A stretch of DNA of 64,000 nucleotides from an uncultured Candidatus Saccharibacteria bacterium (GCA_964512835.1 CAZELA010000003.1:88098-152097); one strand, 5' to 3'. Counted from the first letter of the stretch, positions 16,771 through 49,716 are shown. Notes: generated by a model from the sequence alone, not told the origin. Translations and numbers: made by a program.

Positions 16771-16871
16771 GCGCGGTAGACTACCCTATTGCCTACATTC
16801 GTCAAGCGTGGTCTCGTTTTATCCCATCGGGCGACGTCCCGGTCTTCATTTACGGGGTATACTGGCGCGAT

Positions 16872-24934: not shown

Positions 24935-25129
24935 AATTGTGTGATACGTCGTCTATGCAGTGAGAACAATGCTCAGCATTATACGCACTTCGTGCTCGTA
25001 TGGAATCTTGACCGAGTGTCGCAGGGGTGTTCACAACTATGTGGATAACGCGGGGATATGTTTTTTTGCGCTCGCGGAATTTTTTTCCGCACGTTGCGTT
25101 TTTCACCCGCCTGTCGCATACTGCGCCGC
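24935..25129. promoter_or_regulatory. dnaA-rpmH divergent promoter region with a perfect DnaA box and T-tracts
   Basis: Perfect TGTGGATAA at about 25039-25047, then three phased T-tracts (ATGTTTTTTTGCG, GGAATTTTTTTCC, GCGTTTTTCACC). Confidence 0.6.
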
Positions 25130-25270
25130 ATGTCGACCAAGCGAACATATCAACCCAAAAAGCGAAAGCGTGTGAAAACACACGGCTTCCGAGCGCGAAC
25201 AAAGTCTGCGACCGGTAAGGCTGTGCTCGTTCGCCGCCGCCGCAAGGGCCGAGCGAAGCTCACGGTCTAG
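25130..25270 (+). CDS. rpmH: 50S ribosomal protein L34
   Basis: [46 protein letters not shown]. The upstream part of the tool ORF is not coding. Confidence 0.9.
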
Positions 25271-25283
25271 TACCGTACCCGCC

Positions 25284-25610
25284 ATGCCTAAAAAGCAGCG
25301 GCTTACAGGGGGCGAAATTCGTCGCCTCAAACCTGAAAAAAGGCTTGTTTCAAGCCTTTTTTCGCTTTCGTATGCTCGTGATGCGGGTGCCGGGAAAGCC
25401 GCCTGTGTCGTATCCAAAAAGGTATCCGCCCGCGCGGTTGACCGCAATACCGTGAAGCGCCGGATGCGCGCCGCTCTGCGTTCGCTCGCTCCCCTGCCCC
25501 CGCGCGTCTCTATGGTAATAGCTGCCAAGAAGGCGGTGATGACCGTTACGTATACTGAGCTACGAACAGACCTCGAATCACTGGTCAGCCGCATTCATGG
25601 CGGGAAATAA
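25284..25610 (+). CDS. rnpA: Ribonuclease P protein component
   Basis: RNase P protein pattern (KKQRL ... VSKKVSARAVDRNTVKRRMRAALR). Position directly after rpmH. Confidence 0.85.
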   Translation: MPKKQRLTGGEIRRLKPEKRLVSSLFSLSYARDAGAGKAACVVSKKVSARAVDRNTVKRRMRAALRSLAPLPPRVSMVIAAKKAVMTVTYTELRTDLESLVSRIHGGK

Positions 25611-25637: not shown

Positions 25638-26372
25638 ATGATCTCCTCAGCATTCCACGCGGTCGTGTATCTTCCGATTTATAACGCACTCGTCTACTTC
25701 GTCGATGTGGTACCGACGCACGACATCGGTATAGCGGTCATCATTGTGACCATCATCGTACGCTTCATCCTCTTTCCGCTTGCGCGCCGCGCGATCAAGT
25801 CTCAGATGGCCATGAAGGCGGTTGCCCCCGAGATCGAGGAACTTAAGAAAAAATACAAGGATAAGCCGGAAGAACAGGGTCGCGCTATGTTTGCGCTGTA
25901 TCGGGAGCGTAAAGTGAACCCGTTTTCCGGGTTTCTACTCCTGTTGCTCCAGCTCCCTATCCTGCTTGGCCTCTACTGGGTGTTCGCACGCGGGGGGTTT
26001 CCGGTCGTAAAGCCGGAAATGCTCTATTCTTTCGTCGCTGTGCCGGAGGCGGTGAACATGCACTTCCTGGGGCTTATCGACATGGGCGGAAAGAGTATCC
26101 TTTTGGCCGTTTTGGTGGCTATAACGCAGGCTATTTACACCCGGCTCTCCATGGGTCCCCAGGGCACTGTTACCCAGACCGAAGCTTCATTCTCGGATGA
26201 AATGGCGAAGAGTTTCGACGTTCAGGCACGCTATGTGCTACCGGTCGTGATCGGCATTGTTTCCTACTTTGTAGCCGCCGCCGCACCTTTGTACTGGGTC
26301 ACCAGTAACCTTTTTATGATCGGACAAGAGATATACGTCGGTCGCCGCTTTCACGGCCGCCATGTGCAGTAA
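25638..26372 (+). CDS. yidC: Membrane protein insertase YidC (short Oxa1-like form)
   Basis: Five TM segments, conserved PLYWVTSNLFMIGQE and amphipathic region. Classic rnpA-yidC-jag order. Confidence 0.85.
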   Translation: MISSAFHAVVYLPIYNALVYFVDVVPTHDIGIAVIIVTIIVRFILFPLARRAIKSQMAMKAVAPEIEELKKKYKDKPEEQGRAMFALYRERKVNPFSGFLLLLLQLPILLGLYWVFARGGFPVVKPEMLYSFVAVPEAVNMHFLGLIDMGGKSILLAVLVAITQAIYTRLSMGPQGTVTQTEASFSDEMAKSFDVQARYVLPVVIGIVSYFVAAAAPLYWVTSNLFMIGQEIYVGRRFHGRHVQ

Positions 26373-26426: not shown

Positions 26427-26903
26427 GTGCCCTTCATGCACGCAACGGTTGAAACAATTTTGAAGGAATTGCTTGCCTCCATGGGGCTTGAGACCGCCAA
26501 AGTCAGCCGTGCAGAAGCTGCCGGTCAGGCTATTTTTTCCATACAGACAGAGGACCCGGCCGAGGCTCGAGCACTCATCGGCGCACATGGCGATACCGTG
26601 CACGCCATCGATATGCTGGTAAAAAAGATCGCGGAAAAACGACTCTCTCCCGAGGAGTCCGAAAACATGCACTTTCTTGTCGATGTGAACGACTACCGCG
26701 TAAAGCAGATTAAGGACCTGCAGACGAAGGCTCTTATGATGGCGGAACGCGCCCGCTCATTCCAATACGACGTTGAGCTCTCGCCCATGAGTGCGTACGA
26801 GCGACTCATCGTGCACACAACGCTCCAGGATGCGCCGAATGTGAAGACGGAATCGGCCGGCGAAGGGCGCAACCGTCGCGTGGTCATCAAATACGCAGCC
26901 TAA
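26427..26903 (+). CDS. khpB: Jag/KhpB (EloR) KH + R3H RNA-binding protein
   Basis: Jag N-terminal segment, KH-like segment and C-terminal R3H (YERLIVHTTLQD ... GEGRNRRVVIK). GTG start with SD-like GAGAG. Confidence 0.8.
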   Translation: MPFMHATVETILKELLASMGLETAKVSRAEAAGQAIFSIQTEDPAEARALIGAHGDTVHAIDMLVKKIAEKRLSPEESENMHFLVDVNDYRVKQIKDLQTKALMMAERARSFQYDVELSPMSAYERLIVHTTLQDAPNVKTESAGEGRNRRVVIKYAA

Positions 26904-26920
26904 GCCCTGCCCCGTACAAC

Positions 26921-26954
26921 AAAAAGACGGCACGATGGTGCCGTCTTTTTGTTT
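26921..26954. terminator. Bidirectional terminator between jag (+) and the pilin gene (-)
   Basis: AAAAA GACGGCAC-GATG-GTGCCGTC TTTTTGTTT. Confidence 0.75.
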
Positions 26955-26966: not shown

Positions 26967-27422
26967 TTATCGAGATCCGATGCCCCCCTGCCCCAGCGGT
27001 GTCGTCTGTTTTGGAGTGACGTACTTGATGTTGAGTTGCGTGAGTTGCGGGTTGATCTGGTTCAGGATGAGATACACGCTCAAGAGCAGCAAGAGTCCGA
27101 TCATAACGTCACCTAAAATTTCTTTGGCGTGCGACTTCTCACCCCATGCGTCAGATGACATGTACTGCCACCCTGCATAGCCGATGCGGAGTACTGCGAG
27201 AATCGCGCCGATCGACAGTGCGATCTTGAATGCGGAACCCACGAACGAGCCCAAGTCGTTGAAGCCTGAACTGTTGACGCTGTTTACACCGAAGATCTTG
27301 GAAAAGTCTGCATTCTTAGTCAGCGGCACGAAGCCTCCCTGTGCGTGTGAAAGGACGGGAACGGCAAGAGCAAGCGCAAACAGAATTAGTACAGTAAGTG
27401 TGAGGGTTCGCGTGAGACGCAT
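26967..27422 (-). CDS. VirB2/TrbC-like T4SS pilin
   Basis: Signal peptide MRLTRTLTLTVLILFALALAVPVLSHAQ. Two hydrophobic helices (SAFKIALSIGAILAVLRIGYAGWQYM and ILGDVMIGLLLLLSVYLILNQ) flank a short loop, which is the VirB2 topology. First gene distal in the cluster. ATG at 27420-27422 chosen; the longer ORF overlaps the previous gene. Confidence 0.55.
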   Translation of the reverse strand: MRLTRTLTLTVLILFALALAVPVLSHAQGGFVPLTKNADFSKIFGVNSVNSSGFNDLGSFVGSAFKIALSIGAILAVLRIGYAGWQYMSSDAWGEKSHAKEILGDVMIGLLLLLSVYLILNQINPQLTQLNIKYVTPKQTTPLGQGGIGSR

Positions 27423-27429
27423 AGGTACA

Positions 27430-28686
27430 TTATTCACTGATTCTGAGCAGCCAGAGTGACTTATCCGCAGCGTCACGGAATCCGATTGCCGAGCCTGTTT
27501 CATCCATCATCGGCTCCTCTACATCAAAGTCAGTGCGGGTATCGGGTACGAAAAATCGGGTCGCAGTTCCTGCTGCAGCTTCGACTCGCCACCAGATATC
27601 GTGCGTATGGACCGCGCCTTCATACCAGCTCGCAAGGTATCCGGCTTTCGGAGATTCGGCCGGTACCGCGCAGTATGCGATGAGTCCGGCGCCCGGTGCC
27701 CACACACACTTGTCCGCCGTCGTTTCAAGCGGAAGTCTAACCGCGTCGCTGCCTTCGTTCTTCACATAGAGTGTGAGCTTACCGTCCTCTACCGCCCCGT
27801 AGAGATAGGCCTCTGCGGTGTCGTGATAGCGCACGGTCAGCCCGTTCACATTGGAGACGAGCGGTTTCATAGTGCCTGACGGTGAGACGATGAACGAGTA
27901 CCCCGAGGCGGTATCAGAGGCGTCCTGCACGATAACCGTTCGTCCATCGGCGAGTGCCTGCACCCTCCATTGATACAGCGGTGAGACGAAAACCTTTTTT
28001 GTGTTCGTCCCTTTCCATCCCGATGAGACACCGATCGAGCCGCCTTCGGCAAGTTTTGCGATATAGAAAATATTCTTTGCGCTCGGTTGGTAGTTCGGAG
28101 TGTCGAGGGCAACGATATTTTGCGGCAGATACGTACCTTCGAGCACGTTCGGTGTCGAGGTCGAGGTGATGACACTGGTTGTCGCAATGGATGCGGCAAA
28201 TGTCGTTACAACGTCCTGCTCGTTCGTTGTGCGCAGTATTACATCGCCCGAGCGGCTGAAACGCGCATCCATGATCTTCGGCATGAGTGTGTTCGTGAGA
28301 CGTATGATGCTGCTCGTATTGGGGTCGGCTCGCATGATGTTACCTGTTGCGCGCTCTGCGATATAGATTGACGCCCCGGACGGACCGAATCCGAATCCTG
28401 CGACCGGGGTACGCGTTACGTGCCACAAGCGCGGGGCGCGGCTGCCGGTTTCAGCGGTGGATGTGCCCGTATCCCCCGAAATGTTCTGGTAGGTGCTTCC
28501 GGCGCCGCCCGAGAACGACGCTTCTTCCGTGCTGCCGCGCGCAGTGATTTCCGAAGAAGTCTCTGCGGTCTTGTTCTTGATGAAGAAATACCACCCGGCG
28601 GAACCGCCGATGATAACGACCAGCAACGCCACGAGTACGAATTGAATGATCGAGTTTCGCATATTATTTGCCGGTGAACGGATCAA
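27430..28686 (-). CDS. membrane-anchored extracytoplasmic protein of the T4SS-like cluster
   Basis: N-terminal TM anchor (IIQFVLVALLVVIIGGSAGWYFFI) then a beta-rich soluble domain. No recognisable family. Confidence 0.5.
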   Translation of the reverse strand: MIRSPANNMRNSIIQFVLVALLVVIIGGSAGWYFFIKNKTAETSSEITARGSTEEASFSGGAGSTYQNISGDTGTSTAETGSRAPRLWHVTRTPVAGFGFGPSGASIYIAERATGNIMRADPNTSSIIRLTNTLMPKIMDARFSRSGDVILRTTNEQDVVTTFAASIATTSVITSTSTPNVLEGTYLPQNIVALDTPNYQPSAKNIFYIAKLAEGGSIGVSSGWKGTNTKKVFVSPLYQWRVQALADGRTVIVQDASDTASGYSFIVSPSGTMKPLVSNVNGLTVRYHDTAEAYLYGAVEDGKLTLYVKNEGSDAVRLPLETTADKCVWAPGAGLIAYCAVPAESPKAGYLASWYEGAVHTHDIWWRVEAAAGTATRFFVPDTRTDFDVEEPMMDETGSAIGFRDAADKSLWLLRISE

Positions 28687-29674
28687 CGCTTGCGCCGGAT
28701 TGAGAAGAGCCGCCGAGTGTGCCGAAGGTTACGTTCCAGATACCGTGTGCGTCGAGTCGAAAATTCTTCTTGTGTGTAAGCGACAGTTCGACGAGTCCGA
28801 TTCCGCCCTCTGCCCCGGCGTTGATGGTGAGCGTTGCCGGCCGCTCTTTATTGGCCTCTACAGGGGCCTTGTTCACGCGCCAGATGTAGGTGAATTGCTT
28901 GTCGTTCGGGCCGTCAGCGAATGCAAAGTACGGGATCGCGGTGAACGTCATTTCGGTGTCTCCGAGCGAGGTCTCGGCGGGAACGGCATTGTGGTACATG
29001 GTTCCGTAGAGCGGATGCTCGAAATACAGCTGTGTTGTCGGTACAACGGTTGCGATCGCCGCGGTGCGGTCTGCGCCGAGTGTTCGGTCGGATGTCGTCA
29101 CACTTACACTGACGGTGTTGGTCTGAGAAAACTCCGCAACAGGAACGCTGAGTGAGGTCTTGCCTCGTCCGCTCAGGAGCGTCTCCCCGCTCTGTGTCCA
29201 TGTGTAGATGAGCTGAGATGGCGGGATCTCAACACCGTCTTTTGCGAAATGAGGCAATGCCTGCAGCGTGATTGATGCGCCGAGGCTCGGAAGACGACGG
29301 CCGCGGTAGAGACCGGGAGCGTACGTGTTCGCTTCCCAGAGCAGGTCGACGGACAACGGTATGATTGAAAGCGACGCATCACCGTCTACACCATCCACGC
29401 GAACCGACATGTCGGCCCGTTCACCGCTTTGCGGCGCTTTCATTTTGTACACCGTCTCCCCCTCGCCTTCCGCTACAATGGTCCCGCTGTTGCGCCACGA
29501 GATCTGGCGCTGTGTGAGGTCGAGGACCGGGCTCTGCACGGTAAGCGTGATTGCTTCGCCGGGGCGCGGATACTGCGGTGTGACGGAAACGAACAACTTC
29601 GGCCCATTGAACAACTCCTGTGCCGAAGCCGGAAGTGCGAGTAGCAACGCGACGAGAAAGACTGCGTATCTCAT
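28664..29674 (-). CDS. secreted protein of the T4SS-like cluster
   Basis: Signal peptide MRYAVFLVALLLALPASAQE. Overlaps neighbours by 4-23 nt, suggesting an operon. Confidence 0.5.
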   Translation of the reverse strand: MRYAVFLVALLLALPASAQELFNGPKLFVSVTPQYPRPGEAITLTVQSPVLDLTQRQISWRNSGTIVAEGEGETVYKMKAPQSGERADMSVRVDGVDGDASLSIIPLSVDLLWEANTYAPGLYRGRRLPSLGASITLQALPHFAKDGVEIPPSQLIYTWTQSGETLLSGRGKTSLSVPVAEFSQTNTVSVSVTTSDRTLGADRTAAIATVVPTTQLYFEHPLYGTMYHNAVPAETSLGDTEMTFTAIPYFAFADGPNDKQFTYIWRVNKAPVEANKERPATLTINAGAEGGIGLVELSLTHKKNFRLDAHGIWNVTFGTLGGSSQSGASVDPFTGK

Positions 29675-31623
29675 ACGATACCGGGAGCGACCGCCGGCTC
29701 TGCCGGCGAGGCCGGAGCCGGTGTTCCGGTCGTTTTCGGGAGTGCGGCGGCGGCAAGTGTTGCAGCTGCCTGCTGTGTCGCCTCGCGCTGCTCGTTGATC
29801 TGCGCGTCGGTCGAATTTTGGAGGTCCTGTTTTGCCTTCTTGATTGCGAGGATCTGTGACGGGTCCGATGTAATGATCTGGTCTTCCGTGTACGAGGCGA
29901 TGACTTTGATCGCAACGTGCTTCAGTCCGGCAAAGAAGATCCCCTCGCCCACGTCTGACTCAAGGAGGAGGTACTTCTCTTCATCCGAGAGCTTGAAGGT
30001 CTGCTGGACGAGGTCAACCGACGTCGGTGACTGACGCAGAAGCATCTGAATCGACGAGTTTGTGATCATCGGTACGCCGTAGGGTGAGTTCAAGAAGTCG
30101 GATACGTCCTGCGTGATCGTCGAGATTCCAAGGAAGTATTTTCGGCCGCGCTTTGCGATCGAGAAAAGGAACGATGCGGTGTCTTCGGAACGCATCATCC
30201 ACCACGCCTCGTCGATGATGAGGAGTCGTTTGCGGAGCTCTTTACGCACCGTGTTCCAAATGTGGTGCGTAATGATGTACATGGCCACCGGCTTAAGGTC
30301 ATCTTCCATGTCTCGGACCGAGAACACGACCAATTTCTTGTTCATGTCGACGTTCGTCGGGCGGTTCATAAAGCCGGACCAGGTTCCCTTTGTGTATTTA
30401 GACAGACGCTGTACGAGTGACTCGGAGCCGTCCATACCGGAGAGCACGAGCTCGAAGTCGGACAGGAGCGGCGGTTCAACTGCGGCAAAGTTCGCATCTG
30501 CGGTGATGTCCTTCAATGCGTAGGTTTCCGTAATGGCGCGGTCGATGACGGCATCCTCTTCAGGGGTGAGGCCGCCCAGCATGATGCGGAAGAGTCCGAC
30601 GAGCGTGATGATGTTATTGCGAAGCACGTCCGACGGCGATTCGTCTTCGCGAGGGATCGGCAGGTCGAACGGGTTAATGTGGTGCTCCGAGGAGAGCGAG
30701 ATATTGAAGTATCGTCCGCCGACCGTTTCCGCGAGGTATTCATACTCGCGTTCAGGGTCGATGACGATCACTTCGGTATCGAACATGAGTGAGCGAAGAA
30801 TCTCGAGCTTGGTGGTGTAGGACTTACCGGCACCGGACTTCGCGAACGTGACGGAGTTGTAGTTTTCGAGTGAGAAGCGGTCGAACAAAATAAGCGACGA
30901 GTTGTGGCGGTTGATGCCGTAGAGAATGCCCCGATCCGAGGTGAGGTCGAAGGATATGAACGGAAAGATCGATGAGAGCGGAGCCGAGTTGAGTTTTGTG
31001 TGCACGTCGAGCTCATCGGTGGCGATCGGAAGCACCGAGCGGAATCCCTGCTCCTGTTGAAACAGGGCCGGGCGGATGTATACAAGACGTGATTCAAGGA
31101 CGGACCTGATCTCGCTTTCGGTCTTGTCGACCTGTTCACGTGTGGCACCGTAAATTGTGAGGTACAGACCGACGTCGAAAATCTTTTCCTGGGCCTGCTG
31201 CAGGGAGTCGCGCAGCTGTTCGAGGTCGGAGTATGCGGTGTCGAGCATCGGGTCGCGCACCATCCCCTTCTCTTCACGCGTCGAAATCTGACTCTGTACC
31301 TCGGCCACTTTTTTCTGGAACTTGCGGAGCATTTCGTTGGTGTCCATCGGATGGATGAAGATCGAAATATCGAGCACTTTGTCCATGTTGATGATCGGTG
31401 CGAACCAGCCCGTCGTGAGGAATCGCGGGTATGAGATTACGAAGAACGTGCGCGCGATCTTTTCTCCGAGATCGAGCTCGTGTGACGAAATCTTGAGGGC
31501 GTGCGGCGCGATGACATCCTGCAGGTCGAGAACGCCTGTCTGGTAGATCTCTTCCGGCAGAACCGGCAGCACGTTCGGTCCCTGCTCCTGCTTTTTTCCC
31601 AGTAGTGAGTCGAAAAGTCCCAT
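29671..31623 (-). CDS. virB4: VirB4/TrbE/CagE-family T4SS ATPase (C-terminal ATPase portion)
   Basis: Walker A FAKSGAGKSYTTK, Walker B LLIIDEAWWMM, and conserved VirB4 C-terminal motifs (GISTITQ, DVGEGIFFAG). Start at MGLFDSLLG (ATG 31621-31623). Upstream in-frame extension is not protein-like. Confidence 0.85.
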   Translation of the reverse strand: MGLFDSLLGKKQEQGPNVLPVLPEEIYQTGVLDLQDVIAPHALKISSHELDLGEKIARTFFVISYPRFLTTGWFAPIINMDKVLDISIFIHPMDTNEMLRKFQKKVAEVQSQISTREEKGMVRDPMLDTAYSDLEQLRDSLQQAQEKIFDVGLYLTIYGATREQVDKTESEIRSVLESRLVYIRPALFQQEQGFRSVLPIATDELDVHTKLNSAPLSSIFPFISFDLTSDRGILYGINRHNSSLILFDRFSLENYNSVTFAKSGAGKSYTTKLEILRSLMFDTEVIVIDPEREYEYLAETVGGRYFNISLSSEHHINPFDLPIPREDESPSDVLRNNIITLVGLFRIMLGGLTPEEDAVIDRAITETYALKDITADANFAAVEPPLLSDFELVLSGMDGSESLVQRLSKYTKGTWSGFMNRPTNVDMNKKLVVFSVRDMEDDLKPVAMYIITHHIWNTVRKELRKRLLIIDEAWWMMRSEDTASFLFSIAKRGRKYFLGISTITQDVSDFLNSPYGVPMITNSSIQMLLRQSPTSVDLVQQTFKLSDEEKYLLLESDVGEGIFFAGLKHVAIKVIASYTEDQIITSDPSQILAIKKAKQDLQNSTDAQINEQREATQQAAATLAAAALPKTTGTPAPASPAEPAVAPGIV

Positions 31624-31624
31624 A

Positions 31625-32284
31625 TTATTGCTGTTCGAGCGACATCGGCTTTGAGTCCTCGCCCGGGTTGAACATCTTGTACAACAGTTCGATCGCCTCT
31701 TCAGTGCCGAGCTGTACCGTGCGCACCCCGGTTCGCACGAGTCCCTGCTGCACAATGGAGATGCGCTGCTCGAGCTGTGTAGCCTGCTCCTCAAAGGTTC
31801 GGTTCTCTTCCGCCGCGTTGCTTTTCTTTTTACCGAACGGAAAGATAGAACCTCCGGAGTTTGTCTGAATCACAGCCGGCGTATAGGGCACCACGATGAA
31901 GAAGTTCTTGGTCATGATATTGGCCGCCTCTGTGAAGCTTTTGATGAATTCGATGTATTCGCGGATCTGGATACGCATCAGGTCGTCGAGCTGGCCTTTG
32001 TACGCCTCTTCGAGTGTTGCTATGTAGGGACGGATATCGAGTTGTCGGGACTGCACGAAGATCTGGCACGAAAAGTCGAGTGAGTTCAGGAAGTTCTGAA
32101 ACTGCACGATGAAAGCGGTCTGCTCGTCCTCCGACTTGAGTGCGAAGTTGATCGACGATGCGAGCAGGATGGCACGAAGACCGTTATCTTTCATGACCAC
32201 GATACCGTCACGCACCTCCTTGATCGGCACGAACTCCTGTGTCGACTTGTTCTCGCTGCGCGTACTGTTCTGGGTCTGGGGCAT
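31625..32284 (-). CDS. VirB4-like N-terminal domain protein (separate ORF)
   Basis: IKEVRDGIVVMKDNGLRAILLASSINFALKSEDEQTAFIVQFQNFLNSLDFSCQIF resembles the N-terminal domain of Gram-positive or CPR-type VirB4/TcpF/PrgJ. Its stop TAA (31625-31627) is 1 nt from the ATG of the ATPase ORF in a different frame. Confidence 0.6.
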   Translation of the reverse strand: MPQTQNSTRSENKSTQEFVPIKEVRDGIVVMKDNGLRAILLASSINFALKSEDEQTAFIVQFQNFLNSLDFSCQIFVQSRQLDIRPYIATLEEAYKGQLDDLMRIQIREYIEFIKSFTEAANIMTKNFFIVVPYTPAVIQTNSGGSIFPFGKKKSNAAEENRTFEEQATQLEQRISIVQQGLVRTGVRTVQLGTEEAIELLYKMFNPGEDSKPMSLEQQ

Positions 32285-32286
32285 AG

Positions 32287-32793
32287 TTATTGTGTCAGCG
32301 CCTTCAGTGCTTCACGGGGTGTTCGGATGCCGCGTGCCATGTCTTCGCTTCGTACGGCATCGCGGTCGCGTTCATTGCCGGTGCCGGCGGCGATACGCTC
32401 CTTGATATCGAGGCTCCAGGCGAGCTCATGAAGCCGTGAGTCATTGAGTCTCGGAACGTAGAGGTTCTCTTGCGGCATGAGCGGGTTCTTTTTTGCTTCA
32501 GCCATACGCTTCTTTGTCTTGTTGTTCCAGAGGTAGAGCTTGGAGTGGACGAGGTAGAAAAACGCGGTTTCAAGTGCAATCATGAATGGACGTCCGTTGT
32601 ACTGCATGAATGCGAGCGCGACGGAAAAACCGACCACCATGATCGCGATCGGTGCCGCGATGAATGACGGGAGCAGTCGCCACACGAGGTATGCGAGTCC
32701 TAATCCGCCCGCCATGTAGACGAACTGTTTGAATGTGAACGGTCCGAAGATTTTATCTTCGACCTCAATGAATTGAGGTACCTGAAACTGCAT
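32287..32793 (-). CDS. PrgI/VirB3-like small membrane protein
   Basis: MQFQVPQFIEVEDKIFGPFTFKQFVYMAGGLGLAYLVW matches the PrgI family start (xVPxDxExEDKIxGPLTxRQxxYL). Two TM segments. Directly upstream of VirB4. Confidence 0.6.
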   Translation of the reverse strand: MQFQVPQFIEVEDKIFGPFTFKQFVYMAGGLGLAYLVWRLLPSFIAAPIAIMVVGFSVALAFMQYNGRPFMIALETAFFYLVHSKLYLWNNKTKKRMAEAKKNPLMPQENLYVPRLNDSRLHELAWSLDIKERIAAGTGNERDRDAVRSEDMARGIRTPREALKALTQ

Positions 32794-32866
32794 GCAGTAT
32801 CAGTATACCCCGCGTCGAACGCTACCCGCTGCGCTTTTCACAGTCGTAACGGTGCAACGCGCGTAA

Positions 32867-33457
32867 TTACGACAACTGTTCGCGGTACGGATCACCCTCG
32901 ATACTTTTTCGTTCGTGACTGGCGCTCGCGCTGTATGTTTGCGGAATCTGGGCGCGCACTGCTTTTTCCTCGGGTGCAGGCGCGGGGGGTGTTGCGGGAA
33001 CGACTGCCGGTGCGGGTGGTTCCACGGGTGTGTTCGGTGCGGGTACCGTCGCGACCGACGAGCCTTCCGCGTCAAGTGTTTCCGCACGCAGCGCGTCAAC
33101 ATCGGACATTGCCTGCTGTACGGCGGTCGGATGACTCAGCGAGCGTTCCATTTCGCCGCGGATCGGTTTGAACACGATGTCCGAGATGCTCTGCGAAAGC
33201 TCCGTTGCAACCTCTGCCGTTACATTGAGGTCTTTTTCGAGCCGAGTCGGCAACTCCGCAACCGGCTGAAAGCCGAGGAGTGTGAGCATCACGTTGTTCT
33301 CAAGGATCTGCCACTGGTCGACGTGAAGCTTGTGGCCTTCGGCGAGATCGCGCATATGCTTTTGTACGTCTGCGGACGTGATCGCGTCCTGTACGACCTT
33401 CGGGAGGGTTGCGAACCGCTCTGCAAACTGTGCCGACATGTCCTGTTCGATGTCCAT
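32867..33457 (-). CDS. hypothetical protein of the T4SS-like cluster (Pro/Ala-rich C-terminus)
   Basis: Protein-like composition with no TM. Long antisense plus-strand ORFs across it are shadow ORFs. Confidence 0.45.
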   Translation of the reverse strand: MDIEQDMSAQFAERFATLPKVVQDAITSADVQKHMRDLAEGHKLHVDQWQILENNVMLTLLGFQPVAELPTRLEKDLNVTAEVATELSQSISDIVFKPIRGEMERSLSHPTAVQQAMSDVDALRAETLDAEGSSVATVPAPNTPVEPPAPAVVPATPPAPAPEEKAVRAQIPQTYSASASHERKSIEGDPYREQLS

Positions 33458-33460
33458 AGA

Positions 33461-35779
33461 CTAGGTTGTTGTTCCGCTTGAGCCGCCGGACTTGAGCGAA
33501 GTTTGAATATCTTTGAGGACGCTCGACGGTGAGTCCTTCTTTGTATACTTCGAGAACGTCTTTTCGATGATGGCTTTGCCGACATCGCCGCCCTGCGCGT
33601 GGTGTGATGTTTCTTCTGCAAGGTGGCTGATACCGCTCTTGACCCCCTCTTCGGCCTTTTTGACCCGTCGGTCGAACTTGTCCTTGATGTCTTTCTGCAT
33701 TTGCGACGAGACGGCGTTCGCTTCCTTGCGCGCCTTGGTGACGAGTGTGTTCTTTTCTGCGTGCGCTCGCTGTGCATCCGCGAGTCGTTTCTGAGCCTCT
33801 GTCTTCGGTCGGTCGATCTCGGAGTTGATGGTCGTAAGCTTCTGGTGTGCCTCCTTGATGCGCTGCGTTTCTTTTCCGAGTGCCTCCTGCTTCTCGGCGC
33901 GTGCTTTGACGAGTTCCTGCTGTGCCTTCTGGCGCTCCGCCGCGGCGAGGGTCTGGTCGTTGGATCGGTGTTCGTGTTGTGCGATGACACTGTCGTATCG
34001 TGTGTTGACGTCGCGCTGGTGTTCTTCGTGTGCCGCCTCCACTTCCTTGGTGACGGTCTCCACCTCGCCCTTCCGCGCATCGCGGTTCGAATCTGCTTGT
34101 GCGCTTGCGGCGGCAAGTTCCTTCTCTGCCGTCTGCATGCTGTCGCGGGCGATCTCGAGCTCCTTTTCTGCCGCTTCCTTTGCCTTCGCCTTTGCATCGG
34201 CTTCGTTGCCGTACTGCTTCGCGATTTCTTCTTCGGTCTCCTTCTTCATCTTTGCCTTGTCGTCTGCGGTCAGCGCCATCGCCTTTGCCTTTTCTTCCGC
34301 GTGCTCGGCGTGCGCATTCATGTTGCTTACAAAACCGCCCTTGGTCTCGCCCACCCCCTTGAGTCCGGCGCTGCCGGCGATCGCCTTGCCGAGTGCGGTG
34401 TTCATAAAGTTGTAGCTGCGGTCCGCCTTCTTCTCGAGTTCCGCCTTCTGCTTGCGGAGCTTCTCGAATGCTGCCCAGTCGCTCTTGAGACCCGTCTCCA
34501 TCGCCTTGCGCTTCGCCTTGTCGACACCCTCGTTCATGTTCTGTGCTCGACGCGCGTTGTTCCACCCGAGGGTTCGCTGACCGAGCCCTGCGCCCAGGAG
34601 TGCTCCGCCGATCAGCGGGAGTCCTGCGGCCATTTGTCCGGCGCGCACGCCGCTGATTGATCCTGCGAGTGAGCTTGAGAGGCGGAATGACGCAAACAAC
34701 ATGCCGGTACCGATAATGTAGAGGAACAGCACACGCCACCCGTCGGCGAGGACCTGTTGCTGGGGCGCATTCAGGAGCGCACCGAAGGTATCATTGCCCG
34801 TGACACGGAGTGATGCTTCCTGCATCACAAGGATCGATATCGAGAGGAATACCATCAAAAGCGGCGCGAATGCGGCGTTGTTGATCAGTGACTTCCACCA
34901 TGCGGTCCACCCAAAGCGGCTGGCTTCGAAGTGCGGAGAAAGGTACGTGGCGTACGCGATCGGTGCGGTGAGCATGAGAATGAAAAACCAGATTGCGCGC
35001 GCGATGATGAGGAATGCCCCGTACAGGATCACGAGGGCAAGAGCAGCAAGTATAAAGAAGCCGAACAGTCCGAACAGGAAGGCTTTCATTGCTCCCCCGT
35101 CGGTCTGCTGTGCGACACGCAGCGCGAGTGCGGATGTATCCCACACACCCGTCACGTGGAGCGGCGAGAGGATCTTGTCTGCAATAGAGAACTGCGGTAC
35201 GGCTCCGCCGTTCGGCACGCGGGCGGTTTGTGAGTAAATCGAGTACGCCATGAAGTTCGACGCATCGATGACGATCTTTGTGAACAAAAGACTGAAGTTC
35301 ATCAGGACTGCGATCACGAGCACGCGCGCGATCATACGCTTCTGTCCGTACTCCTTGAGACCGAGAATGAGGCTGATGGCAATGAACACGAAGATGCCGA
35401 TCATCAGTATGTTCGCGATATCGCGGAAAAAGGTCCAGCCGCTGTTGATGATCGGGACCAGTGACATCGAATCAAGTGTGTTCTTGAAGTCCATGATGGC
35501 GCGGTTTACGCCGAAGTCGAATATTGATCCGGCGAACCGCAGAATGCCGCCGCCCATGGAAAGCATTGCGGAACTTGCCCAGAGCGTGACAGGTACCGCA
35601 ACGCAGCGTGCGAACTGGAAGTTGTACCAGCAGCCGCTCGGATTCTGCAGGGCCTGACTTGCGTCTTTGGTACTCCCTGCCGCAGCTTGTGCGAGCGCAC
35701 TCTGAGGGATCAAGGTGAACGCGAGCGTCACGATGATTGTGAGGAGTGCGATTGTCCAGGTTGTACGAGAGAGAGTCAT
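33461..35779 (-). CDS. VirB6/TrbL-like polytopic membrane protein with long C-terminal coiled-coil/Lys-Glu-Ala-rich extension
   Basis: Signal or first TM MTLSRTTWTIALLTIIVTLAFTLIPQSALAQA, then at least 6 TM helices (IMIGIFVFIAISLILGL, VLVIAVLMNFSLLF, FLFGLFGFFILAALALVILYGAFLIIARAIWFFILMLTAPIAYATYL ...) as in TrbL/VirB6. About 330-aa charged coiled-coil tail. ATG at 35777-35779 chosen. Confidence 0.65.
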   Translation of the reverse strand: MTLSRTTWTIALLTIIVTLAFTLIPQSALAQAAAGSTKDASQALQNPSGCWYNFQFARCVAVPVTLWASSAMLSMGGGILRFAGSIFDFGVNRAIMDFKNTLDSMSLVPIINSGWTFFRDIANILMIGIFVFIAISLILGLKEYGQKRMIARVLVIAVLMNFSLLFTKIVIDASNFMAYSIYSQTARVPNGGAVPQFSIADKILSPLHVTGVWDTSALALRVAQQTDGGAMKAFLFGLFGFFILAALALVILYGAFLIIARAIWFFILMLTAPIAYATYLSPHFEASRFGWTAWWKSLINNAAFAPLLMVFLSISILVMQEASLRVTGNDTFGALLNAPQQQVLADGWRVLFLYIIGTGMLFASFRLSSSLAGSISGVRAGQMAAGLPLIGGALLGAGLGQRTLGWNNARRAQNMNEGVDKAKRKAMETGLKSDWAAFEKLRKQKAELEKKADRSYNFMNTALGKAIAGSAGLKGVGETKGGFVSNMNAHAEHAEEKAKAMALTADDKAKMKKETEEEIAKQYGNEADAKAKAKEAAEKELEIARDSMQTAEKELAAASAQADSNRDARKGEVETVTKEVEAAHEEHQRDVNTRYDSVIAQHEHRSNDQTLAAAERQKAQQELVKARAEKQEALGKETQRIKEAHQKLTTINSEIDRPKTEAQKRLADAQRAHAEKNTLVTKARKEANAVSSQMQKDIKDKFDRRVKKAEEGVKSGISHLAEETSHHAQGGDVGKAIIEKTFSKYTKKDSPSSVLKDIQTSLKSGGSSGTTT

Positions 35780-35790
35780 ACAGGTGGTTG

Positions 35791-37380
35791 TTATAGTGCC
35801 TGCGGGCACGCCGCTCCGGACCAACATGCGGTCCACTCCTCTTTTACGGCGGGCGCCGCGGTCTCGGACAGATTGCACCATCCCTTCACCGGGTCGGGAT
35901 CCTCTTTCCATTTCTTGACGGCGTTTTCGACGATCCTGGGCAGCATCTGTCTGAATGACTCGTACGTCGTGCTTTCGTTCGACGCATTGTGCAGTGTGAT
36001 TGCGTTCAACGCCGCCTGTGCGATCGTTTGCTGCGCGGCAGTCGGGTTTGCAATCAAGGCGTCGCGGATGAGCGTGATGGCTGTGATATTCGTATCGGCC
36101 GGACCGAGCTTTTGGGTCGTTGCGAGCGCGCTTGCACGGAAATTGTCTTCGATGACCTTCTGCGAGAACTTCGTTTCTTTAATAAACGTCAGCGTGCCGC
36201 CGGCGGTCGCGGTGCACGATGTATCGTTGATGGTGCCCGCCTGACAGACCGCATTTGCGATATCGGTGTAGCACTGGGCTTCCTGTGTGCGCAGCGCGGT
36301 GCTGTTTACGGTGAAAAGCGCGATGGTGTCCGTGATGACCTTCTTATAGGCGGTCTCCTGGGCGATCGCGTTCCGCAGGAGGTCGAGTGTAAAGTTGCCC
36401 GTCTGTGTGACGAGCGAGCCGCCCGCGGATTGCTTGACCTGTTCCATGTACGAAAGTGCACCACTGATTGCCTGGGTGATCGCAGAGAGTCCGCCCGTGC
36501 TTCCGGCTGTGCCGCCGGATCCGCTGCCGAGTGTGCCGCCGGTAAGCACCTGATTCGAGATACCCGCGTACAGCCCCTCGGTCATCTCGCCGATATCGTC
36601 GGCCTCGCGCGCCTGCACGTATCCGGACTGCACCGATTGAATACCGTTTGCGAGCACAATGGCGCCCGGCGTATCGGTCACGTGAAAACCGTCTTCGTCA
36701 TAATGGAATACGTCGGTTATACCCTGCCCCCAGTTGAGTCGCTCGTGTTGTTTGTATAGCTCGTACGCGCTCTGCTGCTCAATAGCATTGTATGCAAGTA
36801 CCGATGCGGAAAACACACTGCATGCCGGGTTATCGGTGACCGCGTCGAATGCGTCCCAGTAGTTACCGCTCGGAGTGCCGCTGTAGACCTGGTTGAGGTC
36901 GCCGGTGTATTTACACTCAAATCCGAGACGAGGGTCACGGGCATAGTTATATGCCTGACCGATCCAGTTTTTTACCTTACCTTCGATCGTATCGTTGAAG
37001 TTCGATAGCGAATCATTGCGGAGGTATCGGTTGACGGTGCGGTCATTCAAAAACACATCTTCCTTGCCCATTTCTCGCGACGGGTAACTGTTGAACTGTT
37101 TCAAAACCTCGGTGTCGAGTGCTGCAAGGGCAGCCTTGCGCTTCGCGGTCACGATCTCGCGCAGGACACATTCTTTATACACAAGAAGCCCTGTGTTTAA
37201 TTCAACCGCGTAGTCGGCAACGGGAACGTACGGACCGCCGAGTGGTCGCGTGGACCCGGCACCGGTCGTCGCCTGCCCGCTTGTGTTGCAGTTATAGATG
37301 TCGTCGGGTGCAGCGAAGGCCACGATCGGTGTGATACCAAGACAAAACGCGATAACAGCAACGAGGATCGGTTTTTTCAT
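35791..37380 (-). CDS. secreted protein of the T4SS-like cluster
   Basis: Signal peptide MKKPILVAVIAFCLGITPIVAFA. 529 aa. Overlaps the next gene via ATGA. Confidence 0.55.
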   Translation of the reverse strand: MKKPILVAVIAFCLGITPIVAFAAPDDIYNCNTSGQATTGAGSTRPLGGPYVPVADYAVELNTGLLVYKECVLREIVTAKRKAALAALDTEVLKQFNSYPSREMGKEDVFLNDRTVNRYLRNDSLSNFNDTIEGKVKNWIGQAYNYARDPRLGFECKYTGDLNQVYSGTPSGNYWDAFDAVTDNPACSVFSASVLAYNAIEQQSAYELYKQHERLNWGQGITDVFHYDEDGFHVTDTPGAIVLANGIQSVQSGYVQAREADDIGEMTEGLYAGISNQVLTGGTLGSGSGGTAGSTGGLSAITQAISGALSYMEQVKQSAGGSLVTQTGNFTLDLLRNAIAQETAYKKVITDTIALFTVNSTALRTQEAQCYTDIANAVCQAGTINDTSCTATAGGTLTFIKETKFSQKVIEDNFRASALATTQKLGPADTNITAITLIRDALIANPTAAQQTIAQAALNAITLHNASNESTTYESFRQMLPRIVENAVKKWKEDPDPVKGWCNLSETAAPAVKEEWTACWSGAACPQAL

Positions 37381-38267
37381 AGAGATTTTCGCGCGAACAG
37401 TGATCGCATGCGGTCGAAGGAGTCGTAGATACCCTGCTCTTTCTCATTATAGGTGCGCAGCAGAGCGACGGATGCGTACGGGTCGTCGCCGTGACTGACG
37501 AGTCCGTCGAGTACGGCAGCAAACGCGCGAAGGGAGTTCAGGAGCTCGCGGTGGTAGTTGATTGCATCCTGCGGCACCCGGATCTGTGCACCCGCATCAG
37601 CGGATGCACGATATGCTGCGGCTGCGTCGCGGAGTTGCGTGAGGTATTTCGGGTCGCTCGTCTCGACATAGTGGCCGTAGATCACGTATTCGGCGCTCGG
37701 AATGCTGGAGAGCGGCTTGAACGCCTCCTGCAACTGGTCGCGGTATACGCGAACGCGCTCTGTAGAAGAGTCCGGATCTACCGTAAAGTCGCTGTTTTCG
37801 AACGCATCGTACGCAACCGCTGCTTTCATGCGGTCGGCAATACGTGCCGCGGCTTCGCGCAGATCTTCTTTGGTGTAATCCTGTCCGCTATCAAGTATGC
37901 GTGCGTACGTGCCCAGCATCTCGCCGGCGATCATCGGTCCGATCAATGACAAATGGTCGTTGGTTGTCGTAGCATCGAGATCTGTTGAATCTGACATGCC
38001 GAGGAGAACCATCGACTGCTGGTCGAATGAGTCCATCGGCGCGGGAGATGCCCCTGTCGAGGACGTGGTCGTTGCAACGGCGACAGGCGTGGTCGCCGAG
38101 GATGCAGGGCGCAGTGCGCTTGTAATACGAACCGCGGTTACTCCTACAAGTAGCACAATCGACAAGAGCGCAGTCACTGCAATAGGAGAAAAGCCGCCGA
38201 ATACCGCGCGTAATTTCTGCACACTAAAAGTATACCCCAGTGAAACTGCAGAGCGTGGCTCAAACAC
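37377..38267 (-). CDS. membrane-anchored protein of the T4SS-like cluster
   Basis: N-terminal TM anchor (FGGFSPIAVTALLSIVLLVGVTAV). GTG start per the ORF track. Confidence 0.5.
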   Translation of the reverse strand: MFEPRSAVSLGYTFSVQKLRAVFGGFSPIAVTALLSIVLLVGVTAVRITSALRPASSATTPVAVATTTSSTGASPAPMDSFDQQSMVLLGMSDSTDLDATTTNDHLSLIGPMIAGEMLGTYARILDSGQDYTKEDLREAAARIADRMKAAVAYDAFENSDFTVDPDSSTERVRVYRDQLQEAFKPLSSIPSAEYVIYGHYVETSDPKYLTQLRDAAAAYRASADAGAQIRVPQDAINYHRELLNSLRAFAAVLDGLVSHGDDPYASVALLRTYNEKEQGIYDSFDRMRSLFARKSL

Positions 38268-38287
38268 GGGAAAAAATGGGATAGCTA

Positions 38288-39157
38288 TCAGTTTCTGCGG
38301 AAGCTGAACGCAGAACCGGCATCGGTCTCGTCGAAAGTGACATCGTGCGTGGAAAACAGGTTTACCATGCCGACGAACGCGAGTGTAAATGCGTCAGCCT
38401 TGTTGTTGTATGACGTGATCGCGCCTATGAACGCTTGGTCGTCACTCGCCTGAGGAACGGCAGCGAGTGCCGTTCCGAGATTTACGTATGAGTCCCCGAG
38501 TGCTTTATGAGCCGCTTCGGCGCTCACGGGTACATCGTGGAAGCTCAAGATGCCCTCGCCGAGCGCCTTGTACCGGTTTCCGAGCTCGATAACTGCGTCG
38601 GCATAGGTTTTATTGTCGCGGTGTGTCGCCTGGTTCACTACCGTCTGTGACATATTGGGGTTCACGGCCGCGAATGCCTGTACTCTGCGTCCGATCTCGT
38701 TACCATAGGCAAACAAAAGCTCCTGTTCCGCGGTGCGCGTAGGGGCGGCGGTCGCCTGTCTGCTCGGGACGAATGTGAACGCTCCGATCAGCTCCTCGTA
38801 GGTCTTTGCGGTCTGAGGATGAGTGGGGGCGTCATCATGGGCCAGTCGTGCGAGCAGTGCATTGTAGTCAAACGACTCGTCTCCCGGCTTTTCGATGATC
38901 TTTGCGGTCACGCCCGTGGAGGGTTTCGGGATGACGAGCTTCTCCGGAGCGGGCTCCGCGGCCGTATCGGGCAGCTCATGTTCGGTCACCGTGGTTTCAG
39001 TGTTGGGCGTCGGTTCGATGTAGCCGCTCACTGTATCCCATGAGGAATTGCTGCCGGTCGGGGCAACGGCGCGCTGGCGTTCGACGAAATACAGACCGGC
39101 GAGGACGAGGATGAGTGCGGCAATGAGCGTAAGGAGGACCGGATGCCTCAAATTCAT
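38288..39157 (-). CDS. membrane-anchored protein of the T4SS-like cluster
   Basis: Start chosen at MNLRHPVLLTLIAALILVLAGLYFV (ATG about 39155-39157). First gene of the minus-strand cluster. Confidence 0.5.
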   Translation of the reverse strand: MNLRHPVLLTLIAALILVLAGLYFVERQRAVAPTGSNSSWDTVSGYIEPTPNTETTVTEHELPDTAAEPAPEKLVIPKPSTGVTAKIIEKPGDESFDYNALLARLAHDDAPTHPQTAKTYEELIGAFTFVPSRQATAAPTRTAEQELLFAYGNEIGRRVQAFAAVNPNMSQTVVNQATHRDNKTYADAVIELGNRYKALGEGILSFHDVPVSAEAAHKALGDSYVNLGTALAAVPQASDDQAFIGAITSYNNKADAFTLAFVGMVNLFSTHDVTFDETDAGSAFSFRRN

Positions 39158-39237
39158 AATCTCAGTATACCCTGCTGCATGTACGCGAATGTGACATATC
39201 CTCGCTTGTACACGCGCGAGCTGAGGACGGCGCGGGT

Positions 39238-39579
39238 ATGCCGTATACTTCATACATGCGTGCGATCGCAGGCACCCTCGCGGGGATCATACTGCTCATG
39301 GCCCCTACCGCCGTAGTGGCACAAACAAACCCGTTCGGCGGACCGATCACACAGATCATCTTTTGCTACAACCAAGCGATCTGGACCACCGTTGGTCCCC
39401 CGGTGGGAGGCATCTATATATGGACGCCTTCGACGGTTACGTACCAGTTCGGACCACCGGCACATGTGGGCCAGTATTTGCTCGGCCTCTACGGTGCCCC
39501 CTACTACTGTCTCGTATCGATCGTCCCGATTATCGTGTTTGCGGGCATTTCCATAACCATGATGGGGAGCTCACAGTGA
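39238..39579 (+). CDS. small secreted hydrophobic protein (possible second pilin-like subunit)
   Basis: Signal peptide MRAIAGTLAGIILLMAPTAVVAQ. C-terminal hydrophobic helix YYCLVSIVPIIVFAGISITMM. Divergent from the cluster. Confidence 0.4.
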   Translation: MPYTSYMRAIAGTLAGIILLMAPTAVVAQTNPFGGPITQIIFCYNQAIWTTVGPPVGGIYIWTPSTVTYQFGPPAHVGQYLLGLYGAPYYCLVSIVPIIVFAGISITMMGSSQ

Positions 39580-39710
39580 AAAACAGTCCTTGAGGACAGT
39601 TTTTCTCTAGTGAGCTCGGGCGGAGCGTTGTGAGCCCAGCGGGGCGAACCGCGAGCCGTGGTCAGAACATTTTTGACGCGACGAGAGTTGCGGGCGTGGT
39701 CAGTACACCC

Positions 39711-40487
39711 CTACCCCACCAACACTCTCGTGATGGTCTTCCAGCTTTCTATTCCGATATCCTCTGCTCTAGCTTTTTCTGATACGCCCGCCGCCGCAAG
39801 CGCGGCTATGGCTTTCTCCTTTCCGAATACCGTCGCAAGGTTGTTCACTACCATTTTTCGCTTCGACGCAAAACCGGCATGTGCGACCTTGAAGAACGCC
39901 GCTTCGCTGATGTCGCTGAAGAAATCTCGCGACACGTCTTTGATGACGAGGATCGCAGAATCCACTTTCGGTGCCGGAGAAAAATGTTTAGCAGGAACTT
40001 TTTCCGTGATGCGGGGCGTTCCGTACGCTTTTATCGACAGAGAAAGCAGGCTCTCTTTTTTCGAAACGGCACGCTGTGCGACCTCTTTCTGCACGAGGAG
40101 TGCGAGTGCGCGCGGTTGTACGTGTGCCGTAAGGAACTGCCGGATTATTTCCCCTGTTATGTAGTACGGAATATTCGCGGCGACCACGTAAGCGGAAAGC
40201 CCAAGCGACTCCGCCGACACATTCCGCACGTCGTCTTCGACAAGTCGAAACGTTCCCGTAGCGATTTCGCTCGCGAACGTGGCTTCGAGTTTCGGCACGA
40301 GCTCGGGATCTTTCTCAACGGCGACCGTAGGCCCGAGTGCTAGCAGCTCCTTCGTCAGAATGCCCTTGCCGGGACCGATCTCAAGGTAGGTCTCACCGTC
40401 TACGAGCGGTACTGCGTGCGCAAGCGCTCGCGCTGCCCACGAGTGAATGAGAAAGTGTTGTCCGAGTTTTGCGCCGCCCCGATTCAT
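39711..40487 (-). CDS. rsmA: 16S rRNA (adenine1518/1519-N6)-dimethyltransferase RsmA/KsgA
   Basis: QHFL, SAM-binding EIGPGKGILT and catalytic NIPYYIT motifs. Confidence 0.85.
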   Translation of the reverse strand: MNRGGAKLGQHFLIHSWAARALAHAVPLVDGETYLEIGPGKGILTKELLALGPTVAVEKDPELVPKLEATFASEIATGTFRLVEDDVRNVSAESLGLSAYVVAANIPYYITGEIIRQFLTAHVQPRALALLVQKEVAQRAVSKKESLLSLSIKAYGTPRITEKVPAKHFSPAPKVDSAILVIKDVSRDFFSDISEAAFFKVAHAGFASKRKMVVNNLATVFGKEKAIAALAAAGVSEKARAEDIGIESWKTITRVLVG

Positions 40488-40496
40488 AGGGCGACA

Positions 40497-47923: not shown

Positions 47924-47954
47924 TGAAGCCCCGACTGTGTCGGGGCTTTTTCTT
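47924..47954. terminator. Bidirectional terminator between NUDIX (+) and TrmB-like (-)
   Basis: GAAGCCCCGAC-TGTG-TCGGGGCTTTTTCTT. Confidence 0.75.
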
Positions 47955-49685: not shown

Positions 49686-49716
49686 AAAGCGCTCACTTCG
49701 GTGAGCGCTTTTTCAT
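49686..49716. terminator. Bidirectional terminator
   Basis: AAAGCGCTCAC-TTCG-GTGAGCGCTTTTTCATT. Confidence 0.75.

Follow-up and report, generated by a model that had tools for sequence, protein, structure and literature searches.

The 64,000-nucleotide stretch analysed here (GCA_964512835.1, CAZELA010000003.1:88098-152097; hereafter the window, with positions counted from its first nucleotide) carries, beside the predicted replication origin, a cluster of genes that encode a type IV secretion system (T4SS). Open reading frame (ORF) listing and start-codon inspection place 11 co-directional genes on the minus strand at 26967-39157 and one divergent gene on the plus strand at 39256-39579. Their predicted products include a VirB4-family ATPase, a TrsD-like protein, a PrgI/VirB3-like small membrane protein, an extended VirB6/TrbL-like polytopic protein and a VirB2/TrbC-type pilin, together with several proteins of no known family. 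A preliminary description of the same DNA had counted ten co-directional genes, either because the TrsD-like gene was not separated or because a 196-amino-acid (aa) product was not counted; the co-directionality and the divergent gene are both borne out, and the start of the latter lies more likely at 39256 than at 39238, the position given there. We are highly confident that the region is a vertically inherited chromosomal T4SS of Paceibacteria, of the kind described for Patescibacteria.

The VirB4 ATPase core (29671-31623, minus strand, 650 aa) matches the NCBIfam model of CD1110-family VirB4 above its cutoff (E=1.7e-109; 367 bits, cutoff 325) and PF19044 with E=5e-24, and its Pfam matches are of the TraG P-loop/AAA_10 type. 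Walker A (GAGKSY, 30817-30834) and Walker B (LLIIDEAW, 30202-30225) are both intact. The protein resembles the C-terminal domain of Thermoanaerobacter VirB4 (PDB 4AG5, E=8.6e-41) and is much farther from TrwK of R388 (E=2e-8). Because the match to the CD1110-type model begins at position 185 and runs to 733 of 752, the ORF lacks the extreme N-terminal domain. The gene immediately upstream, trsD (31625-32284, minus strand, 219 aa), ends 1 nt ahead of the virB4 ATG, and its product aligns with two VirB4 models, over positions 2-118 for CD1110 and 93-233 for Mbov_0397, as well as with the TrsD/TraD family. Its scores against NF045975 (E=7.2e-12) and TrsD NF041427 (E=1.1e-6) are both below the curated cutoffs, it matches TIGR00929 with E=2.9e-5, and a PDB profile search gave no usable match. 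As judged from these alignments, VirB4 is encoded in two pieces, a TrsD-like N-domain protein and an ATPase, an arrangement overlooked in the first reading of the sequence. The split is not a frameshift artefact, since trsD stands as an ORF of its own, 209-227 aa long, in 77 related loci.

Of the remaining recognisable components, PrgI (32287-32793, minus strand, 168 aa) matches PF12666 above the gathering score (E=1.3e-10; 42.1 bits, cutoff 27). The pilin (26967-27422, minus strand) is 151 aa long if counted from the ATG at 27422, with a maximal ORF that extends to 27503. Its signal peptide is followed by a variable segment and by two hydrophobic helices with a short connecting loop; it also has an invariant QINP motif and a C-terminal tail that varies. 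The window protein scores below the gathering threshold of PF18895 (T4SS_pilin, E=0.003), and 29 of 31 orthologues match this family (best 9.5e-11), and six match PF04956 (TrbC/VirB2). In the alignment, the helices are conserved and the outer segments, namely the N-terminal region and the C-terminal tail, are hypervariable. The VirB6-like protein (33461-35779, minus strand, 772 aa from the ATG at 35779) has a signal-like N-terminus and about six hydrophobic segments, and ends in a tail of ~340 aa that is charged, helical, rich in Ala, Lys and Glu and coiled-coil-like, for which the only PDB matches are coiled-coil proteins. It has no Pfam match and only a faint similarity to CD3337/EF1877 (E=0.004); 5 of 41 orthologues match PF04610 (TrbL/VirB6, best 6.5e-7), and the family comprises 5521 cluster representatives at E<=1e-10. 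The pilin and VirB6-like assignments are thus predictions that are secure only at family level. With this qualification, the preliminary description was right to name a VirB2-like pilin, a VirB4 ATPase with clear Walker motifs, a PrgI/VirB3-like protein and a VirB6/TrbL-like protein with a coiled-coil tail.

It had also listed five signal-peptide or membrane-anchored proteins of no known family, and these indeed have no Pfam or NCBIfam match. Structure prediction gave folds for two of them, with only generic structural matches. The AlphaFold2 model of the secreted g336 product (28664-29674, minus strand, 336 aa; 34-sequence alignment; predicted local distance difference test score, pLDDT, 87.1) shows a signal peptide and three tandem immunoglobulin (Ig)-like beta-sandwiches, matched in the PDB by generic Ig domains such as those of Hoc and Sidekick. 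That of the g418 product (27430-28662, minus strand, 410 aa; 61 sequences; pLDDT 87.4) shows a beta-propeller, which contains an invariant Cys pair, tethered through a disordered linker to an N-terminal transmembrane (TM) helix; its PDB matches are generic propellers, and TolB-like profile matches are weak (E=0.011). The start of g336 overlaps the virB4 stop (ATGA). We scanned one genome per species, which returned 577 relatives, and took synteny counts from the best 80 loci: g336 lies directly downstream of virB4 in 77 of them, and g418 adjoins virB4 in 69.

The other accessory genes have fewer recognisable features. The product of g196 (32867-33457, minus strand, 196 aa), a cytoplasmic protein encoded between virB6 and prgI in 50/80 loci, has neither signal peptide nor TM segment and consists of a helical N-terminal domain, a Pro/Ala-rich linker and an invariant C-terminal DPYRE. 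The g529 product (35791-37380, minus strand, 529 aa) is a secreted protein with a signal peptide and conserved Cys residues and evolves fast (24-33% identity, detected in 20/80 loci). For neither of these two were Pfam, NCBIfam or PDB-sequence relatives found, and Pfam searches with their orthologue sets gave no family either. The g296 product (37377-38222, minus strand, 281 aa, GTG start at 38222) is bitopic, with an N-terminal TM anchor, a Ser/Thr/Pro-rich linker and a C-terminal helical domain, and a PDB profile search with it gave no match. The g321 product (38288-39157, minus strand, 289 aa, ATG at 39157) is likewise bitopic, with an N-terminal TM anchor, a linker and a helical C-terminal domain, and its PDB profile matches are designed coiled coils only. 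By hhalign comparison of the two families (probability 97.4%, E=1.1e-11), g296 and g321 are paralogues. Finally, the divergent gene g113 (39256-39579, plus strand, 107 aa) encodes a small secreted protein with a signal peptide, two invariant Cys and a conserved C-terminal MMGSSQ; it has no Pfam or NCBIfam family, and its median identity is 58% where it is detectable.

Pfam and NCBIfam searches of the cluster detected no VirB8/TcpC-like, VirB1-like, VirB11 or VirD4 component, nor any match to VirB7, VirB9 or VirB10 at Pfam E up to 0.01 and NCBIfam E up to 0.1, the latter scan covering the ten genes from 26967 to 38267. We considered a LysM-LysM-M23 protein (42732-43829, plus strand) as a VirB1 analogue and rejected it: its best matches are the cell-division endopeptidases DipM, MepM and NlpD, and its position beyond ksgA and uvrD also disfavours such a role. 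Its gene is kept just past uvrD in several related loci, and proteins of this type may be counted as VirB1-like in a published survey.

The cluster has many close relatives. Among the best 120 of at least 8000 VirB4 homologues (85-100% identity), the organism names are Patescibacteria (Kaiserbacteria, Paceibacterota, Parcubacteria) or an unclassified "bacterium". On this protein comparison, the organism is a Kaiserbacteria-like member of the Paceibacteria, within the Patescibacteria. One public contig, CAZWFX010000006.1, is nearly identical (VirB4 100%, other proteins 85-99%), and the window is a close strain variant of it; that contig is labelled Candidatus Saccharibacteria, a label that is probably wrong given that Kaiserbacteria or Paceibacterota make up most of the closest relatives with a name.

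Across the 80 species genomes, which span Kaiser-, Nomura-, Taylor-, Campbell-, Adler-, Wolfe- and Zambryskibacteria, the conserved order is uvrD-ksgA-[g113, g321, g296, g529]-virB6-g196-prgI-trsD-virB4-g336-g418-pilin-jag-yidC-dnaA-dnaN. This retention of the cluster at the origin is far beyond chance. Matches were found in 78 loci for trsD, 77 for g336, 76 for prgI, 69 for g418, 61 for virB6, 60 for the pilin gene and 50 for g196, and in 23, 20, 20 and 17 loci for g296, g529, g113 and g321, respectively; most absences are contigs that break off. In distant loci, the slots upstream of virB6 are filled by positional analogues: one small and secreted, one of ~290 aa with a membrane anchor, and one of 450-670 aa that is again secreted. 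This module is therefore conserved in architecture while evolving fast. We also observed that, in the more distant Paceibacteria (loci L021-L080, as opposed to L002-L020), the pilin gene lies between the Ig-domain and propeller genes (virB4-g336-pilin-g418), and that the pilin ORFs there are often 300-430 aa in size and carry long C-terminal extensions that contain Cys.

No other protein of the neighbourhood is as conserved as VirB4, which has 74-94% identity across the 80 species. Median identities to the window proteins, computed across 55 loci, are 78% for VirB4, 63% for TrsD, 55% for DnaA, 49% for PrgI, 44% for YidC, 40% for DnaN and 39% for the pilin, and fall to ~27-30% for VirB6 and the Ig-domain and propeller proteins. 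In 50 of these 55 loci, VirB4 identity exceeds that of DnaA. Purifying selection acts on the ATPase engine with unusual strength, and the parts at the surface diverge fast.

The profiles closest to the cluster outside the Patescibacteria are conjugative, namely CD1110 of CTn2, the Mbov_0397 integrative conjugative element (ICE) and TrsD of pGO1/pSK41, and a tyrosine recombinase lies ~1.9 kb beyond the right window end. The cluster could on these grounds be read as an ICE, or the remnant of one, that sits near the origin by chance. The synteny speaks against this, as 80 species from several candidate phyla-level groups all have the cluster between ksgA and jag with its genes in the same order, and divergence is consistent with vertical descent, with VirB4 more conserved than DnaA. 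GC content is uniform over the window (0.51-0.59), and that of the cluster equals that of its flanks. The window contains no tRNA or Rfam element. A repeat search found no repeats flanking the cluster, and Pfam scanning of the window ORFs revealed no relaxase, coupling protein (VirD4/T4CP), VirB11 or integrase, both as the preliminary description had stated. Relaxase and T4CP genes are likewise absent from the ~7 kb of contig to the right of the window and the ~2.3 kb to its left, the latter containing nothing related. The recombinase (302 aa; L081 13045-13953) was rejected as an ICE integrase: it is a full-length XerC/XerD protein of housekeeping type (E=3.6e-73 to XerD) that adjoins purH, ~26 kb from the cluster, with PNPase, rpsO, comM and other housekeeping genes between. 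It is the only integrase-like gene found just outside the window, and the earlier view that this is no classical conjugative element therefore holds. An ICE origin is effectively refuted, and we give it almost no weight; the shared order in 80 genomes and the lack of mobile-element marks instead indicate a vertically inherited part of the chromosome.

The surroundings of the cluster agree with its placement beside the origin in the preliminary description. To the left lie dnaN (22250-23347), dnaA (23585-24934), rpmH (within 25058-25270), rnpA (25284-25610), yidC (25638-26372) and jag (26427-26903), which is convergent with the pilin gene; to the right lie ksgA (39711-40487) and uvrD, encoding a UvrD/PcrA helicase (40497-42485). 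A perfect DnaA box occurs between dnaA and rpmH (25040-25048), the dnaA-dnaN spacer contains two DnaA boxes with one mismatch each, and the lowest cumulative GC skew is found at 22-26 kb, placing oriC at this spot. The T4SS cluster, ksgA and uvrD (26967-42485) are on the lagging-strand side, immediately right of oriC (~24.9-25.1 kb). Because the cluster is on the minus strand in a region where the plus strand has positive GC skew, it is oriented head-on to replication. Its orientation relative to dnaA, yidC and jag is the same in related loci. Head-on orientation sits awkwardly with the tentative idea of high gene dosage for high expression. High gene dosage was proposed in the preliminary description and likewise in a survey of Patescibacteria T4SSs, where those of Paceibacteria were found close to dnaA, dnaN, rnpA, ksgA and rpmH (Quinonero-Coronel et al., 2025, Microb Genom, PMC12102498). 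Elsewhere in the window we noted three TrmB-like helix-turn-helix regulators (17021-17767, 45856-46623 and 47953-48675, all minus strand), a 242-aa protein carrying only the DnaA C-terminal DNA-binding domain (12766-13494, plus strand) and several large ORFs without any Pfam match, at 2259-4013 (minus strand, 584 aa), 53245-54819 (minus strand, 524 aa), 49713-50681 (minus strand, 322 aa) and 11736-12665 (plus strand, 309 aa).

Generic scans for sigma-70 promoters and terminators were uninformative, and our promoter predictions instead build on the octamer GGTATACT, which occurs six times in the window against 0.4 expected. Three copies lie on the minus strand 6-8 nt upstream of start codons in the cluster: at 32802-32809 (8 nt upstream of the prgI ATG), a candidate promoter of prgI-trsD-virB4-g336-g418-pilin; at 38229-38236 (6 nt upstream of the g296 GTG), a candidate promoter of g296-g529-virB6-g196; and at 39164-39171 (6 nt upstream of the g321 ATG), a candidate promoter of g321. 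The last shares a 98-bp divergent promoter region with a plus-strand TATACT box (39244-39249), 6 nt ahead of the g113 start. A -10-like box 4-10 nt ahead of the start is found in 50/74 orthologous loci for prgI, compared to only 2-11 for internal genes, and is conserved ahead of g296 in 19/24 and of g113 in 10/20. Internal genes are coupled, either through ATGA overlaps or through a stop codon, a spacer of 1-11 nt and an ATG. From the conserved -10-like boxes ahead of prgI, g296 and g321, the cluster is therefore likely to form at least three units, [g321], [g296-g529-virB6-g196] and [prgI-trsD-virB4-g336-g418-pilin], with leaderless-type starts, and the single 12-kb operon proposed in the preliminary description is unlikely. 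A perfect 16-bp inverted repeat with a 4-nt loop and flanking A- and T-runs (26918-26953), between the convergent jag and pilin genes, probably acts as a bidirectional terminator, at which the T4SS transcription unit would end.

The remaining copies of GGTATACT lie outside the cluster, at 16856-16863 (plus strand), 52776-52783 (minus strand) and 53208-53215 (minus strand), and boxes of this or the TATACT/TACAAT type also occur at 7630, 25621 and 39244. Such boxes lie 6-11 nt upstream of the start codons of many first-in-unit genes, where no Shine-Dalgarno-like sequence was seen, which suggests that leaderless transcription starts are a general feature of this genome.

Taken together, the cluster is, by its gene content and profile matches, most probably a lineage-specific T4SS derived from monoderm (MPF-FATA) conjugation machinery whose DNA-processing functions have been lost. 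The preliminary description had likened it to the stripped-down T4SSs of reduced-genome bacteria, and its VirB4/VirB3/VirB6/pilin set does match the published Patescibacteria system (PMC12102498, PMC10633639, PMC12857230). As to how it might work, VirB4 hexamers would dock onto VirB6 via TrsD and PrgI, and would use ATP to extract pilin from the membrane and to build from it, by polymerisation, a VirB2 pilus or conduit across the cell wall. The places of VirB8 and VirB7/9/10 would be taken by the Ig-domain and propeller proteins, as parts that span the wall or associate with the pilus. The apparatus would then touch the host cell of the epibiont and move macromolecules across the interface, with proteins as the most likely cargo, and would not perform conjugation. 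Here, that a pilus forms, that the host is contacted and what the cargo is are all things we infer, and the odds for this mechanism seem to us about even; the explanation as a whole, a Patescibacteria-type T4SS remodelled from conjugation machinery, we consider likely.

A narrower explanation is that the VirB4/VirB6 engine only assembles a pilus, an adhesive VirB2 filament for host attachment, and translocates no substrate. Consistent with this, the tightly coupled prgI-to-pilin unit ends with the pilin gene, the pilin combines conserved helices with hypervariable outer segments, as expected of a surface-exposed adhesin, and neither a coupling protein nor a recognisable substrate is encoded nearby. 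On the other hand, Patescibacteria already have type IV pili for adhesion and motility, and the strong conservation of VirB4 and TrsD and the long-tailed VirB6 suggest more than filament assembly, although this last argument is weak; the sequence itself does not discriminate between the two explanations. We regard a machine for pilus assembly only as unlikely.

DNA translocation, which the preliminary description had included in its label for the cluster, finds nothing to support it in the sequence. It had also pointed to an orphan PilB and to ComM, and both are indeed encoded in the window. The cluster might be a ComB-like machine in which the VirB2/3/4/6 core imports environmental or host DNA to supply nucleotides or genes, together with ComEC/ComM-type functions. 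Like ComB of Helicobacter pylori, it has a VirB2/3/4/6 core without relaxase, VirD4 or VirB11; comM (51225-52820) lies in the same window; DNA or nucleotide import has been named as a candidate role (PMC11665869); and T4SS loci of the ABY1 class co-localise with comF, recG and radA (PMC12102498). However, comM is 11 kb away, with unrelated genes between, and ComB needs ComB7-10 (VirB7-10) for the outer membrane, which is absent in monoderm Patescibacteria such as this organism; no VirB7, VirB8, VirB9 or VirB10 homologue was detected in the cluster. Moreover, Saccharibacteria genetics separate T4SS essentiality from ComEC-dependent competence: in Southlakia, competence needs type IV pili and ComEC, and comEC is dispensable whereas the T4SS is essential (PMC12857230, PMC11665869). 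Thus, the essential role of the T4SS is not ComEC-linked transformation, and DNA uptake by the present system seems to us distinctly improbable.

Several points weigh against a remodelled Patescibacteria T4SS for host exchange, the reading we prefer. Even in Saccharibacteria, the role of the T4SS has been called "completely unknown" (PMC11665869). The pilin and VirB6-like proteins of the window are individually below family thresholds and were assigned through orthologues, no VirB8-like or VirB1-like component was detected, and the roles proposed for the Ig-domain, propeller and bitopic proteins are read solely from where these are predicted to reside and from their conserved adjacency. A coupling protein may also lie at another site of the genome, since VirD4 homologues are far from virB4 in most Patescibacteria (PMC12102498), and this would leave room for DNA transfer.

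A further, more tentative possibility, which we think somewhat less probable than not, is that the Ig-domain, propeller, bitopic and DPYRE proteins are unrecognised structural subunits of a new monoderm T4SS architecture. Each has a fixed place in the Paceibacteria cluster, and together they could provide the base of the pilus, one that spans the wall and takes over from VirB8 and VirB7/9/10. If so, the conservation of the split VirB4 above that of DnaA would reflect an essential, housekeeping-like role in host exchange. To our knowledge, the Patescibacteria T4SS is the only one that is essential for its own carrier bacterium.

Among known systems, the classical type IVA VirB/D4 set (VirB7/9/10, VirB8, VirB11, VirD4) has no Pfam or NCBIfam match in the cluster. 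The MPF-FATA systems of Firmicutes (TrsC-TrsD-TrsE of pGO1/pSK41, CD1110 of CTn2 and PrgH-PrgI-PrgJ of pCF10) share with it a monoderm architecture without VirB7/9/10: the CD1110 model is the best match for its VirB4, the TrsD-like N-domain protein is encoded separately as in pGO1, and its VirB3 is of the PrgI type. Unlike these, the cluster is fixed in the chromosome rather than carried on a mobile element, and it lacks a relaxase, T4CP, oriT, VirB1-type hydrolase, VirB8-like PrgL/TcpC and surface adhesin. It also has a VirB2-type pilin, which Gram-positive systems lack. The extended VirB6 proteins of Rickettsiales likewise combine a polytopic core with a large hydrophilic C-terminal extension; there, multiple giant paralogues occur, whereas here a single gene encodes a low-complexity, coiled-coil-like tail.

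The closest likeness is to the Patescibacteria-clade T4SS. In a survey of 3,035 genomes, the VirB4 proteins of Patescibacteria formed a monophyletic clade nested in MPF-FATA, TrsD was the most abundant associated component, PrgI, VirB6 and VirB2 pilins were found near virB4, and relaxases occurred in only 103 genomes (PMC12102498). The present cluster resembles these systems in several respects: the closest relatives of its VirB4 are only in Patescibacteria among the matches listed, TrsD-like, PrgI/VirB3, VirB6 and VirB2-type pilin genes lie beside virB4, no relaxase or coupling protein is nearby, and it is chromosomal, beside dnaA, dnaN, rnpA, rpmH and ksgA. In Southlakia epibionticum, an unusual Gram-positive-like T4SS with pilins, without relaxase or coupling protein, is essential (Wang et al., 2023, Cell, PMC10633639). 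A requirement for host-dependent growth is known only from this species (PMC10633639), in which both the T4SS and its pilin array are essential, while comEC is dispensable (PMC10633639, PMC12857230). Its locus tags, SEML1_0006-0019, indicate that it is origin-proximal too (PMC10633639). Southlakia has a six-pilin array where the present cluster has one pilin gene, and here no lysozyme or peptidase genes lie directly downstream of virB4. The function of these systems is described as unknown, with effector delivery or nutrient/DNA import as speculations (2025 FEMS review, PMC12857230; 2024 PNAS perspective, PMC11665869).

The system, its odd gene set and its position have thus already been described in papers of 2023-2025, and with this locus no new kind of system is added. 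The Patescibacteria T4SS is acknowledged as an open problem, which this locus alone does not make more testable. The survey text contains none of the terms "propeller", "immunoglobulin" or "Ig-like" and assigns these accessory proteins to no family (PMC12102498), so the accessory models, the g296/g321 paralogy, the conservation figures and the notes on promoters and orientation are incremental additions. As a clean, complete Paceibacteria example, the locus offers structural leads in the two modelled virB4-adjacent proteins and the bitopic paralogue pair, and further leads in a split VirB4 that evolves slower than DnaA and in a likely three-promoter organisation. Relative to Southlakia, the Paceibacteria version is distinguished by Ig-domain and propeller proteins downstream of virB4 and by the secreted and bitopic proteins that form a fast-evolving module upstream of virB6.

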